A stretch of DNA of 64,000 nucleotides from Candidatus Latescibacterota bacterium (GCA_965204745.1 OZ242010.1:2688001-2752000), one strand, 5' to 3'. Positions 54,225-64,000 are shown, counted from the first letter of the stretch. The notes: generated by a model not told the origin, from the sequence alone. Numbers and translations: made by a program.

Positions 54225-55520
54225 ATGGCTGAAAAATCCTTGCCGAATATCATTTACATCCTGTCGGACGATCTCGGGTATGGGGATTTGGGGTGTTTTG
54301 GTCAGGAGTTGATTTATACGCCGCATATCGACCGCATTGCCGCCGAGGGCATTCGCTTTACGGATCACTACGCCGGATCTTCGGTTTGCGCGCCGTCGCG
54401 GTGCGTGCTCATGACCGGGTTGCACACGGGGCATTGTTATGTGCGCGACAACCGCAGATTGCCGATTGAGGGCAATGTCCCCATCCCATGCGACACGCAG
54501 ACGACTGCCAAGTTGCTCAGAGGGGCCGGGTATGCCACCGCTTGCATTGGCAAATGGGGATTGGGGTATCCCGGTTCGGAGGGCGATCCCAACAATCAGG
54601 GCTTCGATCACTTTTTTGGGTACAACTGCCAGCGCGAAGCCCACACGTATTACCCGCAGCACCTGTGGCGAAACGATAAAAAAATCATGCTCTACGGCAA
54701 CTCGTATTCCCACGACTTGCTCACGAGCGAGGCATTGCAATTTGTGCGCGACCAACAGGCCAATCCGTTTTTCCTGTACTTGGCGTACACCATTCCGCAC
54801 ACGCGGTTTGAAATTCCATCGCTCGACATTTACAAAGACAGGCCCTGGACGGAAGATCAGAAAACGCAGGCCGCGATGATCACGCGCATGGACCGCGACA
54901 TCGGCACGCTGTTGGAGATGCTGGACGAACTCGGCATTGCCGAAAACACGCTGGTGATTTTTACGAGCGACAATGGGCCGCACGGCGTTGGCAACACGCT
55001 CGAACACTTCACTGCGGCCGGCCCGTTGCGCGCGAGAAAGGGCAGCCTGTATGAGGGCGGCATCCGCGTGCCCTTTGTCGCACGGTGGCCGGGGACGATC
55101 TCACCCGGCACGACGAGTGCTCATCCATCGGGATTTCAGGACATGCTACCCACGTTCTGCGAACTGGCCGACGCGTCCATTCCCGAACCCGTGGATGGCA
55201 TCTCGATGGTGTCCGCGCTTACGGGCCGCGATGACCAGCGCGAACGCGATTTTCTCTATTGGGAGCGGCGCGGTGCCAGCGCGGTTCGCCTGGGCGATTG
55301 GAAGGCGTATTTGCCCGAGGGCCATACCAATCCCGAAGGGCGCGTTGAACTCTACGATTTGGCAACGGATATCGGCGAGCAAAACGACCTCGCAACGGAC
55401 CATCCCGATCTCGTTTCAGAAATCCGAACCATCGTTCGAGAATCACATCGGGACACGCCTTGGGAAACATGGGCATACACCGGCCCGATTCCCAATGAAT
55501 ACGGCACCGTGGTTTATTGA
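54225..55520 (+). CDS. Arylsulfatase-family sulfatase
   Basis: SDDLGYGD, CAPSR (CxPxR), GKWGLG, FTSDNG, YEGGIRVP. Confidence 0.95.
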   Translation: MAEKSLPNIIYILSDDLGYGDLGCFGQELIYTPHIDRIAAEGIRFTDHYAGSSVCAPSRCVLMTGLHTGHCYVRDNRRLPIEGNVPIPCDTQTTAKLLRGAGYATACIGKWGLGYPGSEGDPNNQGFDHFFGYNCQREAHTYYPQHLWRNDKKIMLYGNSYSHDLLTSEALQFVRDQQANPFFLYLAYTIPHTRFEIPSLDIYKDRPWTEDQKTQAAMITRMDRDIGTLLEMLDELGIAENTLVIFTSDNGPHGVGNTLEHFTAAGPLRARKGSLYEGGIRVPFVARWPGTISPGTTSAHPSGFQDMLPTFCELADASIPEPVDGISMVSALTGRDDQRERDFLYWERRGASAVRLGDWKAYLPEGHTNPEGRVELYDLATDIGEQNDLATDHPDLVSEIRTIVRESHRDTPWETWAYTGPIPNEYGTVVY

Positions 55521-56014
55521 TCAGGTTCAGGTGAGGCATCGTCATTGGCTTCGCGCAAGGCTTCTAACTCGGGTAAAATCAGGTGATCCTTTGGGCGGTC
55601 AGCAGCGCGTTTGGCCTCGATCAATGCTTCGAGGGAAAGCACGGCGCACGCCACCCCAAAAAGCGCGACAGAGATAGATGAAGCCGACACCTGTTCAAAA
55701 TCTCCAAGACCTGCGACTTCGCCCAATAGGTCTATATCGCCTAGATCTGTTTTGAGCGTAAAATTCAAACCGCGGCGCAGGGTTATTGCATCCCAAAAAA
55801 ATGGCACGGCGTCCGGTACACCTCGCAACGCGGGATGGTATGGCGCCAATGCTTTTACCAACCGCGCCAAATTCTCTCCATCGCGGCGATAACAAATGTC
55901 GAGATCGTAAGTCACATAAGCCGAACCGTGAATTGTCGCTGCCACGCCTCCAATGATCACAAATTCGACTTGATTATTTGCGAGGCAGAGGATGAGTTTT
56001 TTGAGATTAACCAT
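55514..56014 (-). CDS. Nucleotidyltransferase (AbiEii/DUF6036-like)
   Basis: IIGGVAA..HG...T.DLD, KRAADRPKD. Confidence 0.8.
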   Translation of the reverse strand: MVNLKKLILCLANNQVEFVIIGGVAATIHGSAYVTYDLDICYRRDGENLARLVKALAPYHPALRGVPDAVPFFWDAITLRRGLNFTLKTDLGDIDLLGEVAGLGDFEQVSASSISVALFGVACAVLSLEALIEAKRAADRPKDHLILPELEALREANDDASPEPDQ

Positions 56015-56023
56015 GGGATTTTC

Positions 56024-56212
56024 CTACTTTTCTGCGCTACCGCGGATTTGATCGAGGGCGATCATCTCTCGTTGCAGGCGCGACACCCGTTCTTCGGCCG
56101 TGAGGCGCAATCGCTCGATGAGCAACGTGAGGTCGATGCCAAAATCGCGTGCTCGCGCAATCGCGCTGTTTGGCCGAGGATTTCGCAACCGTTCTTCTGC
56201 TGAAGGGTTCAC
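56024..56212 (-). CDS. Small partner protein of the nucleotidyltransferase
   Basis: GIDLTLLIERLRLTAEER. Confidence 0.65.
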   Translation of the reverse strand: MNPSAEERLRNPRPNSAIARARDFGIDLTLLIERLRLTAEERVSRLQREMIALDQIRGSAEK

Positions 56213-60867: not shown

Positions 60868-60900
60868 TGCTATAACTGTGTATTTTCGGTGGAGTTGACG

Positions 60901-61680
60901 ATGGCAAATATCCTTTCCCCATACCGGCCCGATCCGAAAGCCTGCGCGGTTGCCCGTGCGGTTGAGGAGGCGATTCATCCGGATAGGGTCATCCTGTTTG
61001 GATCGCGTGCTCGGGGCGACTTTAACGCGGATTCCGACATCGATCTGCTCATCATCACAGACGCTGAGCGGCGGGATAAGTGGGAATCTGAACGGAACCG
61101 AGTGGTGGCACATCGCAAGATCGAGGAAGTGTATGACCATTGGGTCGGCGTGGACTTGGTTCACATGAGCGAGGCTGCGTTTCACTATGGTCGCCGTGCG
61201 CGCAATCACCTAGCAGGGCAAGCCGTGCGCGATGGCTTTGACGCGAATGGAGATAAGGTGAATTACGATAATCCTGAGCCAACGAATTGGCCCGACATCC
61301 GGCAACGCATTGCAAACGCCGAGCGAGAACTCAAGGCTATGGAAGTGTTAGTTGAAGGAGAAGGCCCTCAAGAAGCCATTGGCTTTCACGCACAGCAGGC
61401 GATAGAAAACGCGCTGAAGGGGTGGATTTCCGCGCTGGATGCCGATTATGGGAATACCCACGATTTGGGCACATTGATGGCGATAGTGCGCCGGCATCCC
61501 GACGAGAATGACACGTACGCTGGCGAACGATTGATGTGGTTGAGCGACTATGCGGTTGAGTACCGCTATGAGGGCGCGAGGGTGGAGATGGACGACCGCT
61601 TTGGGTTGCTCGAAGGCGTCACCGAGACCGTGCATGCCATCATTGATCGCATCCGTGCGCTGACCGGTAAGCGTGAATAG
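60901..61680 (+). CDS. MNT-HEPN fusion protein, copy 1
   Basis: LFGSRARGD...SDIDL; FHAQQAIENALKG, THDL. Confidence 0.9.
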   Translation: MANILSPYRPDPKACAVARAVEEAIHPDRVILFGSRARGDFNADSDIDLLIITDAERRDKWESERNRVVAHRKIEEVYDHWVGVDLVHMSEAAFHYGRRARNHLAGQAVRDGFDANGDKVNYDNPEPTNWPDIRQRIANAERELKAMEVLVEGEGPQEAIGFHAQQAIENALKGWISALDADYGNTHDLGTLMAIVRRHPDENDTYAGERLMWLSDYAVEYRYEGARVEMDDRFGLLEGVTETVHAIIDRIRALTGKRE

Positions 61681-61726
61681 ATCGGGTAGATGAGGACATG
61701 ATATGTACCAAATCGGGAAATTGACC

Positions 61727-62506
61727 ATGCCAAGTATTCTATTTCCATGCCGGCCCGATCCGAAAGCCTGCGCGGTTGCCCGTGCGGTTGAGGAGGCGAT
61801 TCATCCGGATAGGGTCATCCTGTTCGGCTCGCGCGCTCGGGGCGACTTTAACGCGGATTCCGACATCGATCTGCTCATCATCACCGACGCTGAGCGGCGG
61901 GATAAATGGGAATACGTGCGGCACAGCGAGGTGGCGCATCGCAAGAGCGAGGAAGTGTACAAGCAGTGGGTCGGCGTGGATTTGGTTCACATGAGCGAGG
62001 CTACGTTTCACTATGGTCGGCGCGCACGCAATCACATAGCAGGGCAAGCCGTGCGCGATGGCTTTGATGCGAATGGAGACAAGGTGAATTACGATAACCC
62101 CAAACCGACGAATTGGCCCGACATAAGGCAACGCATTGCAAACGCCGAGCGAGAACTCCGCGTTTTGACTATCCTCGTTGAAGCAGACGCCGACCAAGAA
62201 GCCATTGGCTTTCACGCGCAACAAGCGATAGAGAACGCGCTGAAGGGATGGATTTCCGCGCTGGATGCCGATTATGGGAATACCCACGATTTGGGAACAT
62301 TAATGGCGATAGTCCGCCAGCATCCCGACGAGAACGATACACCGGCCGGCGAACGATTGACGTGGTTGAGCAAGTATGCGGTCACGTACCGCTATGAGGG
62401 CGCGGTGGTAGAGATAGAGGACCGCTTCGCGTTGCTCGAAGGCGTCACCGAGACCGTGCATGCCATCATTGACCGCATCCGTGCGCTGGCCGGTAAGCGT
62501 GAATAG
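61727..62506 (+). CDS. MNT-HEPN fusion protein, copy 2
   Basis: Same motifs as copy 1. Confidence 0.9.
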   Translation: MPSILFPCRPDPKACAVARAVEEAIHPDRVILFGSRARGDFNADSDIDLLIITDAERRDKWEYVRHSEVAHRKSEEVYKQWVGVDLVHMSEATFHYGRRARNHIAGQAVRDGFDANGDKVNYDNPKPTNWPDIRQRIANAERELRVLTILVEADADQEAIGFHAQQAIENALKGWISALDADYGNTHDLGTLMAIVRQHPDENDTPAGERLTWLSKYAVTYRYEGAVVEIEDRFALLEGVTETVHAIIDRIRALAGKRE

Positions 62507-62561
62507 GCCGTGTAGATGAGGACATGAGATGAGCAGTATGTACCAAATCGGGAAATTGACC

Positions 62562-63341
62562 ATGCCAAGTATTCTATCCCCATACCGCCCTGATCCGAAA
62601 GCCTGCGCGGTTGCTCGCGCGGTTGAGGAGGCGATTCATCCGGATAGGGTCATCCTGTTCGGCTCGCGCGCTCGGGGCGACTTTAACGCGGATTCCGACA
62701 TCGATCTGCTCATCATCACCGACGCTGAGCGGCGGGATAAATGGGAATACGTGCGGCACAGCGAGGTGGCACATCGCAAGAGCGAAGAAGTGTACGAGCA
62801 GTGGGTCGGCGTGGATTTGGTTCACATGAGCGAGGCTGCGTTTCACTATGGTCGGCGTGCGCGCAATCACATAGCAGGGCAAGCCGTGCGCGATGGCTTT
62901 GACGCGAATGGAGACAAGGTGAATTACGATAATCCTGAGCCGACGAATTGGCCCGACATACGACAGCGCATTGCAAACGCCGAGCGAGAACTCTCGGACC
63001 TGGAAAAGCTGATCGAAGTGGGCGGTTCGCAAGAGGCGATTGGTTTTCACGCACAGCAAGCGATAGAGAACGCGCTGAAGGGTTGGATTTCCGCACTAAA
63101 TGCCGACTATCGGAACACCCATGATTTGGGAGCGTTGATAGCGATAGTCCGGCAACATCCCGACGAGAACGATACACCGGCCGGCGAACGATTGACGTGG
63201 TTGAGCAAGTATGCGGTCACGTACCGCTATGAGGGCGCGGTGGTAGAGATGGACGACCGCTTCGCGTTGCTCAAAGGCGTCACCGAGACCGTGCATGCCA
63301 TCATTGACCGCATCCGTGCGCTGACCGGTAAGGGTGAATAG
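62562..63341 (+). CDS. MNT-HEPN fusion protein, copy 3
   Basis: Same motifs as copy 1. Confidence 0.9.
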   Translation: MPSILSPYRPDPKACAVARAVEEAIHPDRVILFGSRARGDFNADSDIDLLIITDAERRDKWEYVRHSEVAHRKSEEVYEQWVGVDLVHMSEAAFHYGRRARNHIAGQAVRDGFDANGDKVNYDNPEPTNWPDIRQRIANAERELSDLEKLIEVGGSQEAIGFHAQQAIENALKGWISALNADYRNTHDLGALIAIVRQHPDENDTPAGERLTWLSKYAVTYRYEGAVVEMDDRFALLKGVTETVHAIIDRIRALTGKGE

Positions 63342-63393
63342 ATGGTATAGATGCGGAAAGGTGAGCAGTATGTACCAAATCGGGAAATTGACC

Positions 63394-64000
63394 ATGCCGA
63401 GTATTCTATCCCCATACCGCCCTGATCCGAAAGCCTGCGCGGTTGCCCGTGCGGTTGAGGAGGCGATTCATCCGGATAGGGTCATCCTGTTTGGCTCGCG
63501 CGCTCGGGGCGACTTTAACGCGGATTCCGACATCGATCTGCTCATCATCACAGACGCTGAGCGGCGGGATAAATGGGAATACGTGCGGCACAGCGAGGTG
63601 GCGCATCGCAAGAGCGAGGAAGTGTACGAGCATTGGGTCGGCGTGGACTTGGTTCACATGAGCGAGGCTGCATTTCACTATGGTCGGCGCGCGCGCAATC
63701 ACATAGCAGGGCAAGCCGTGCGCGATGGCTTTGACGCGAATGGAGATAAGGTGAATTACGATAATCCCAAACCGACGAATTGGCCCGATATACGACAGCG
63801 CATTGAAAACGCCGAGCGTTGTCTCACTGATATGGAAGTTCTCGTTGAGGATTCCCGTTCTTCCCAAGAAATTATCGGATTTACCGCACAGCAGGCGATA
63901 GAGAACGCGCTGAAGGGGTGGATTTCCGCACTGGATGCCGACTATCGGAATACCCACGATTTGGGAACATTGATGGCGATAGTCCGCCGGCATCCCGATG
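63394..64000 (+). CDS. MNT-HEPN fusion protein, copy 4 (runs off window)
   Basis: Same frame and motifs; no stop before the window edge. Confidence 0.88.
   Translation, partial: MPSILSPYRPDPKACAVARAVEEAIHPDRVILFGSRARGDFNADSDIDLLIITDAERRDKWEYVRHSEVAHRKSEEVYEHWVGVDLVHMSEAAFHYGRRARNHIAGQAVRDGFDANGDKVNYDNPKPTNWPDIRQRIENAERCLTDMEVLVEDSRSSQEIIGFTAQQAIENALKGWISALDADYRNTHDLGTLMAIVRRHPD

Follow-up and report, generated by a model that had tools for sequence, protein, structure and literature searches.

Old, discrete versions of a short island in tandem MNT-HEPN genes of Latescibacterota that are otherwise homogenised by gene conversion: a possible dimer-pairing code

Proteins that join an MNT nucleotidyltransferase domain and a HEPN domain in one chain are already known, and such fusions with HEPN-T, the PF05168 type of HEPN, were listed in PMC3710099, the available text of which describes no arrays with a conversion-resistant island. 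Here we consider four genes of this kind lying head to tail at the end of a 64,000-nucleotide stretch of a Candidatus Latescibacterota genome (GCA_965204745.1, OZ242010.1:2688001-2752000; hereafter the window, in the genome we call G000). What is new is not the fused protein but the tandem paralogues, homogenised over a very long time, in which one short island is preserved. We propose that gene conversion keeps the paralogues alike, that the island is old and escapes conversion, and that it acts as a code for the pairing of HEPN domains in dimers; for this statement as a whole we would give a probability of roughly 0.55.

The fused nucleotidyltransferase-HEPN protein VBP of Agrobacterium offers one comparison. 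According to the available text of PMC3953389, its HEPN domain is the dimerisation domain, with antiparallel monomers meeting through helices 1 and 2. D173 forms bonds with two residues of the partner monomer, K184 and N186, which lie at the edge of the loop between helix 1 and helix 2; each single substitution breaks the dimer, and the dimer alone binds the ATP analogue and the partners. A Legionella HEPN dimer interface is also formed mainly by helices 1 and 2 together with a loop (PMC11586414, available part). VBP and the array protein share the fused chain, and both lack the histidine of the Rx4-6H motif where that motif aligns, although the two are only about 15% identical. VBP is tied to conjugative transfer, whereas no such genes occur among the array neighbours scanned, which comprise the flanks only, and the portion of PMC3953389 at hand describes no tandem array or conserved island in homogenised paralogues.

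FhepTA of Shewanella, a fused toxin-antitoxin (TA) form characterised in 2026 (PMC13000451, as far as its text was available), is likewise a single gene encoding MNT and then HEPN, with a short linker and a conserved MNT motif, and dimerisation of its HEPN domain matters for function. That domain is of the HepT type with an intact R-phi-xxx-H and an adjacent oligoAMPylated tyrosine, whereas the array HEPN matches PF05168, has V or R in place of the histidine and has no such tyrosine; FhepTA is also described as a single gene on prophages and islands, not in arrays. The best match to the array HEPN in both sequence and fold is TT1696 (1ufb; profile E 2e-7, Z 14.5, 25% identity), which keeps RYPDAH whereas the array family has lost the histidine; the four-helix fold also matches the sacsin HEPN domain (Z 13.7) and AF0298 (2hsb, Z 13.4). 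ANT(4'), AAD(9)/ANT(9) and AadA combine a pol-beta-type nucleotidyltransferase with a helical HEPN-like domain and match over 203-218 residues with Z 9.9-10.2, but the root-mean-square deviation (rmsd) is 4.8-5.7 A, the domain orientation is different, and Foldseek TM scores are 0.40-0.47.

A scan for open reading frames (ORFs) finds the four genes on the + strand, with unit spacings of 826, 835 and 832 bp (Table 1), exactly those reported by an earlier reading of the window from its sequence alone. That reading had counted at least four units; extension past the window, beyond which copy 4 continues for 176 bases after position 64000, leaves the count at four, and protein and DNA searches of G000, a single contig of 5.48 Mb, find exactly these four copies and none more. 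Tandem Repeats Finder returned no rows, its longest handled period being 500 and the array unit about 830 bp. We chose the start codon common to homologues (M-[AP]-x-I-L), giving proteins of 259-260 aa, while residue numbers below follow the 267-aa form of copy 2. The fusion noticed earlier is borne out: every copy matches HEPN (PF05168) and NTP_transf_2 (PF01909) above the gathering scores on one polypeptide, MNT first, at 46.6-53.4 bits against a gathering score of 22 for HEPN (34.7 when copy 4 is cut at the window end) and 40.9-41.1 bits against 21 for NTP_transf_2 (in copy 1, E 3.6e-14 and 2.8e-10, respectively).

Table 1. Coordinates of the array genes, their spacers, patches and motifs, counted from the first letter of the window.
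Feature	Position	Strand	Remarks
Copy 1, fused MNT-HEPN, 259 aa	60901-61680	+	patch version D; in-frame GTG at 60889
Copy 2, 259 aa	61727-62506	+	patch version A, subtype A2; upstream in-frame ATG at 61703
Copy 3, 259 aa	62562-63341	+	patch version B
Copy 4, 260 aa	63394-64176	+	patch version C
Spacer 1	61681-61726	+	conserved leader ATGTACCAAATCGGGAAATTGACC and GGGAAA purine run ahead of ATG
Spacer 2	62507-62561	+	resembles spacer 1
Spacer 3	63342-63393	+	resembles spacer 1
Copy 1 core patch KAMEVLVEGEGP	61333-61368	+	version D; also in proteins P0001, P0006, P0011
Copy 2 full island RELRVLTILVEADADQEAIGFHA	62150-62218	+	codons 150-172 (267-aa numbering); core patch 62159-62194
Copy 3 core patch SDLEKLIEVGGS	62994-63029	+	version B; also in G018, G016, G001, G148
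Copy 4 full island RCLTDMEVLVEDSRSSQEIIGFTA	63817-63888	+	version C, one codon longer; core patch 63826-63864
Nucleotidyltransferase motif G-S-X10-D-X-D GSRARGDFNADSDID, copy 2	61826-61870	+	identical in all four copies
Degenerate HEPN Rx4-6H, copy 2: RYEGAVVE	62390-62413	+	aligned to RYPDAH of TT1696 (1ufb)

The copies are nearly identical except for a single segment, sharply delimited and located where the HEPN domain begins, as had been seen from the window, and the four patch peptides translate exactly as then claimed. Mean coding DNA identity among the copies is 91.2% outside the patch and 48.1% inside it. The minimum of a 36-nt sliding window starts exactly at 62159, with a mean pairwise identity of 0.50, against 0.796 for the lowest non-overlapping window and 0.912 for the median window; 31 of 39 patch columns are variable, against 149 of the 780 coding columns (hypergeometric P 5e-17). 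Copy 1 also has private differences, again as noted before, with 50 singleton sites against 18-28 in each of the other copies. The columns that discriminate between versions of the patch are confined to positions 149-171, with none elsewhere in the protein; the suggestion that this one segment separates the copies thus stands, and the segment is probably a specificity surface.

In a survey of the phylum, 44 of 168 genomes and 5 of 49 genera proved to have the family (15/20 genomes in g1, 14/15 in g7, 1/2 in g8, 1/3 in g23 and 12/31 in g27). Two complete genomes of the same genus as G000, G018 with five copies and G016 with three, carry arrays between the same flanking genes. Version A of the patch reads RVL..LVE[AG]D.., version B SDLEKLIE[VI]..S, and version C.D[ML]EVLVED[SP]RSS, the last being one residue longer and showing coupled changes at E151, A167 and H171; version D is found in G000 and three database proteins. 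The array order is D-A-B-C in G000, B-A-C-A-A in G018 and A-B-C in G016, and a third family has more tandem arrays, B-C-A in G148 and A with C in each of G141, G132 and G143. The same few versions recur among the 120 closest database proteins; in total, these homologues and 61 typed copies contain only about four or five versions. Version C accounts for 23 of the 61, and its loop, [DNS][SP]RSS, is conserved across genera whose backbones are only about 70-75% identical. Both main versions, A and C, are present in every multi-copy genome examined, that is, in 17 of the 17 genomes with at least two typed full copies (three genera, three families). The patch had been called hypervariable and the array diversifying on the basis of the window; what we find instead is a few discrete, old and conserved versions, common to species, genera and families.

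Outside the island, the genes follow the genome rather than the version. In the three syntenic arrays (G000, G016 and G018), backbone DNA identity is 0.911 for copies of different version in the same genome (16 pairs), 0.858 for the same version in different genomes (13 pairs), and 0.854 for different versions in different genomes (34 pairs), while for the patch the same version reaches 0.849 across genomes and different versions of one genome 0.516. Within the 17 genomes having both A and C, the A-C identity is 0.826-0.982 for the backbone and 0.405-0.571 for the patch. The extreme cases are the tandem A and C genes of G132 and G143, which are 98.2% and 97.7% identical outside the island and differ almost exclusively in codons 150-172, including synonymous differences at conserved residues; these 98%-identical pairs define the bounds of the 23-codon island. 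In 130 of 136 genome-pair quartets, the A and C backbones of one genome are closer to each other than backbones of the same version are between the two genomes; the six exceptions are pairs of genomes within a genus, one of them being G147 with G142, where backbones of the same version have an identity of 0.976. Between genera, backbones of the same and of different versions are equally similar (0.749/0.749, 0.697/0.695 and 0.759/0.759).

The tree of 61 backbones, built with the island removed, gives the same picture. Versions require 22 changes on it (minimum 3, shuffled mean 23.8) and genome labels 21 (minimum 16, shuffled mean 34.4; none of 200 shuffles as low). Tandem copies form clades in G018 (support 99), G000 (97), and G141, G132 and G143 (99 each), and the approximately unbiased (AU) test rejects version C as a single clade (delta lnL 775.7, p 2.8e-9). 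The G000 copies are mosaic, with 38 informative sites split 21/10/7 over the three partitions and clustered along the gene (runs test p 0.012). Because the backbone tracks the genome and not the version, we attribute the pattern to concerted evolution, which the sequence-only reading had suspected for the scaffold: recurrent gene conversion keeps the genes near-identical within each genome. Conversion also erodes the flanks of the island, since copy 3 of G016 and several version-C copies of g7 have an A-like QEAIGFH on the right, and whole islands are replaced as well, G018 having version A three times. Half-converted islands, by contrast with the sometimes eroded flanks, were not seen in the core.

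Synonymous divergence (dS) gives the island a considerable age. For the backbone, dS is 0.245 within genomes and 0.442 between genomes, while for the island it is about 1.1 between versions, which is saturated, and so the versions are old lineages and not the product of fast change. Within versions, the ratio of nonsynonymous to synonymous divergence (dN/dS) is low: 0.109 for the island against 0.196 for the backbone in nine same-version pairs from the arrays, 0.222 against 0.164 for version C, and 0.109 against 0.171 for version A. Even the ten exposed discriminating codons taken alone give 0.24-0.33. The island is thus old and under selection, neither fast-evolving nor neutral, and the idea of continuing diversification does not survive these numbers. 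Versions A and C are older than the split of the three families, and versions B and D are narrower. We are highly confident of this evolutionary part of the proposal, namely old versions in a homogenised backbone.

For the structural part we rely on an AlphaFold2 model of copy 2 in its 267-aa form, made from an 82-sequence alignment (pLDDT 93.3, pTM 0.88). Single-sequence searches of the PDB matched the MNT part alone and found nothing relevant for HEPN, for which profiles were needed. In the model, a linker connects an alpha/beta MNT domain to a HEPN domain made of helices. The core patch, residues 153-164, consists of the final turns of HEPN helix 1 (138-160) and of loop 161-164; the full 23-codon island extends from the end of helix 1 through the loop into the first part of helix 2 (165-186). 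The residues kept in the patch are L152, L/M155, L158, V/I159 and E160, and the versions differ at positions 151, 153, 154, 156, 157 and 161-164, a pattern typical of an exposed helix face together with a loop. The HEPN domain of the model also superposes on that of VBP (4nqf_A; Z 12.7, rmsd 3.2 over 133 residues, model 130-267 to VBP 151-294). With a HEPN-only profile, the counterparts of VBP D173, K184 and N186 in copy 2 are positions 150, 162 and 164, which lie within the island or next to it, the register being anchored by a conserved motif of helix 2 and by the fold match.

These correspondences suggest that the island could be the self-complementary contact of an antiparallel, VBP-like HEPN-HEPN dimer, in which the loop of each subunit would lie against the end of helix 1 in its partner. 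On this model the preferred partner of a version would be the same version, which would keep paralogous dimers apart; a half-converted island would make a poor partner, and conversions reaching into the island would be removed by selection. In this way a cell might keep several non-mixing dimeric enzymes or adaptors encoded by almost the same gene. If the island holds both halves of the contact, this would account for version identity being written in one contiguous stretch with no co-varying site elsewhere, for island bounds that are sharp and the same in independent arrays, and for the missing half-converted cores; discriminating columns found solely at 149-171 are what one would expect of a patch that contacts its own counterpart. 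By analogy with VBP, we would place the dimer code, taken by itself, just short of an even chance, and its stricter form, in which each version pairs solely with itself or with a permitted partner, is a tentative proposal somewhat below even odds. An obligate A-C heterodimer was considered and set aside, as there are genomes with A alone and genomes with C alone.

Several observations count against this proposal. Among the genomes with a single version, 12 typed ones have A alone, 5 have C alone and 1 has B alone; no version needs another, and one suffices. The alignment that carries the VBP residues across is weak (E 0.24), and its register may be off by a residue or two. No other part of the HEPN domain is as variable or as prone to indels in distant homologues as the region of the island. 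The dN/dS ratios are based on few codons and on related, non-independent pairs. The version-C group offered to the AU test was named after the first tree had been seen, although its definition used columns outside the tree. Finally, the copies of genus g7 are separated by 2-4 kb, and those of a single genome usually fail to form a clade of their own, whereas five C copies group with one another; homogenisation is slower or weaker in this genus.

The alternative that fares best, although we consider it unlikely, is that an external partner, whether a protein, a nucleic acid or a small molecule, is recognised through the island, with a separate target for each version. Possible models are VBP, which binds VirD2 and coupling proteins, and the helical domain of aminoglycoside nucleotidyltransferases, which aids drug binding. 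Purifying selection within versions would be expected of such a surface, the joint presence of A and C in all 17 multi-copy genomes suggests non-redundant roles, the fold of the whole protein resembles ANT(4'), AAD(9) and AadA, and the variable residues occupy the loop and that face of the helix which is not hydrophobic. However, no partner gene has been duplicated together with the copies, and lineages differ in the genes that surround them. In VBP, the homologous positions make dimer contacts and do not belong to the partner site that the available text of PMC3953389 describes, and by the helix topology of the model the island would be remote from the linker to MNT, at the far end of the bundle. 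The dimer code is the reading we prefer over such a surface.

It is improbable, in our estimation, that the island is a neutral relic, a tolerant loop that diverged long ago and is protected from conversion simply by about 50% mismatch, with no role in specificity. The variability and indels seen in this region among distant homologues, and the erosion of its flanks by conversion edges, would both fit a tolerant loop. On the other hand, within-version dN/dS of 0.11-0.33, even at exposed codons, is not near 1; whole-island replacement happens, and yet A and C survive together in every one of the multi-copy genomes from three families; and the version C loop is conserved between genera with backbone identities of about 70-75%.

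An open-ended repertoire, in which a hypervariable segment is under ongoing diversifying selection or targeted mutagenesis, is what the four patches of G000 bring to mind when viewed by themselves, since at an identity of 0.48 they look unrelated. We now regard this as very improbable, being contradicted by the recurrence of only some four or five versions over three families and by purifying selection within each of them. A diversity-generating retroelement target was rejected in particular: a DNA search found no template copy elsewhere in the genome, all four bases differ between versions along with an indel, unlike the product of such an element, and a reverse transcriptase was not searched for. 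That strain variants of a single-copy gene were stacked in tandem by the assembler, a concern raised from the start and natural for a metagenome-type organism in which short-read contigs break inside the array, is scarcely credible given a genome in one 5.48 Mb contig, arrays of three and five copies between the same flanks in two other complete genomes (G016 and G018), further arrays in another family, and a contig from another study (run X9, record 26, 61527-61742) that spans the junction between copies 1 and 2.

As to what the proteins do, the nucleotidyltransferase motif is intact in all copies, and in the 82-sequence family alignment G42, S43 and S53 are invariant and D54 and D56 nearly so. 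The Rx4-6H motif of HEPN retains its arginine, while the position of the histidine is V, or R in copies 1 and 4, and no tyrosine of the RX4HXY kind, the AMPylation site, follows the motif in the array copies. There is a conserved Y four residues before the conserved H195 (YGNTH, 62273-62287). Because the HEPN domain is without the catalytic histidine of Rx4-6H, these sequences make a classical type VII toxin unlikely, and the TA-like character first suggested for the array is weakened. With the MNT motif intact but the RNase histidine of HEPN missing, a dimeric nucleotidyltransferase or adaptor of the VBP or kanamycin-nucleotidyltransferase kind seems more likely than a TA RNase. The NCBIfam family models for MntA, HalB and ANT(9) stay well short of their cut-offs: MntA_antitoxin scores 34.3 bits against a cut-off of 60, the Pfam match being PF05168 and not DUF86 (the HepT type), and ANT_9 scores 20 bits against 340. 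Hailong HalB was rejected at 32 bits against a cut-off of 190, across 27 residues only, and matches to the PADLOC candidate family PDC-S09, weak and in the MNT region (best E 2.9e-11, residues 36-103), were not read as a defence system. Copies 1 and 2 have G at the variable residue of the Y-x-N-T-H motif (62273-62287 and equivalents), where R stands in copies 3 and 4 as well as in copy 3 of G016; this residue follows neither genome nor version cleanly.

Long-lasting concerted evolution of prokaryotic protein-coding genes has been reported for 26 genes and described as exceedingly infrequent (PMC6053082), and the words HEPN and nucleotidyltransferase do not occur in the available text of that paper. 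The array adds a case to the few known. As in that study and in mammalian TLR1/TLR6 (PMC2077338), also known to us through part of the text, paralogues of one genome are closer than orthologues through recurrent gene conversion; the array differs from those cases, so far as these texts describe them, in its sharply bounded 23-codon island and in the same versions recurring across three families. Among the hits listed by our literature searches, which did not cover subscription journals, no paper described fused MNT-HEPN genes in tandem arrays or an island within them that resists conversion. The island may single out the residues that make the paralogues functionally different, and these residues align with the proven dimer contact of VBP, so far as that analogy holds. 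If the proposal is true, several insulated nucleotidyltransferase or adaptor dimers are made from genes up to 98% identical, by a code that selection has held since before three bacterial families split, and this would be an unusually clean case of paralogue insulation in one short cassette, bearing on how near-identical paralogues avoid cross-talk. There is also a caution here, in that patches that look hypervariable in one genome can be old conserved alleles.

The family is patchy in its distribution. Single-copy genes of the same genus as G000 sit at other loci and, at 67-73% identity, are no closer to the array genes than those of another family (70-76%). Taken together, patchiness, identities and loci suggest horizontal transfer among co-resident lineages. 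No neighbouring gene is conserved throughout; the array locus is common only to G000, G016 and G018, and outside it the gene adjoins leucine-rich-repeat (LRR) proteins, PhoX, Lon or SelA/SelB. In the relatives G033, G010 and G014, it is often beside very large LRR proteins (505-1276 aa), some with weak, sub-threshold EF-hand or dockerin matches, and in G033 MNT-HEPN copies alternate with four LRR genes. This adjacency could be either linkage or the mere abundance of LRR genes in such genomes. Within the G018 array, a 148-aa ORF with a rhodanese domain sits between copies 1 and 2, and copies 2 and 3, like copies 4 and 5, abut, with only four codons from stop to next start.

The array in G000 is preceded by an NMT1-type binding protein and an enolase-superfamily gene and followed by an ABC auxiliary (GldG-like) gene, a 1309-aa CARDB/LDL-receptor-repeat protein and a DUF4340 gene; the flanking genes are metabolic and transport genes, and the locus is not a defence island. 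None of these findings speaks to the sensing, defence or detoxification repertoire suggested earlier from the window. The conserved leader reported before copies 2-4 is present in the spacers. It is more likely, judging from comparison with homologues, to be intergenic with a ribosome-binding site than coding, since most homologues are 259 or 252 aa and in a relative the next copy starts four codons past the preceding stop. Predicted promoters (1 against 2.6 in shuffled sequence) and terminators (4 against 3.3) show no excess and are uninformative on co-transcription.

Some further features of G000 may be recorded. The 1309-aa protein, eukaryote-like in its repeats, lies 1.5 kb downstream of the array (65716-69645 in window coordinates, beyond the window); besides five CARDB domains it has a stretch of about 20 glycines and LDL-receptor class B (YWTD) repeats. 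A separate, split pair of MNT and HEPN genes, the classical two-gene form, is found elsewhere in the genome (G000:C1:4641343-4641973, - strand), its products having 34-35% identity to the two halves of the fused protein. Within the window, at 55514-56212 on the - strand, a 62-aa ORF (56024-56212) is directly upstream of a 166-aa ORF (55514-56014); the pair has no Pfam, NCBIfam or PADLOC match and resembles a toxin-antitoxin pair only in layout.

Contigs from public runs of four studies, sponge metagenomes among them, were placed on the array, the parts they leave uncovered being uninformative; there were no RNA data among the public runs listed for the array. Run X1, the best of the runs, covers all four patch versions, version D is also seen in X3, X7 and X9 and version C in X7, and the contigs listed show 0-4 differences. 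X1 does not count as independent support and may come from the source sample itself. One sponge contig of X3 (62168 / 61369) joins the left flank of the copy 2 patch to the right flank of the copy 1 patch through 26 letters, and this insert encodes an A1-type patch, NDLVEADSA, that G000 does not have. The join suggests a strain carrying a different version in a near-identical backbone, and thus a reshuffling of versions among close strains.

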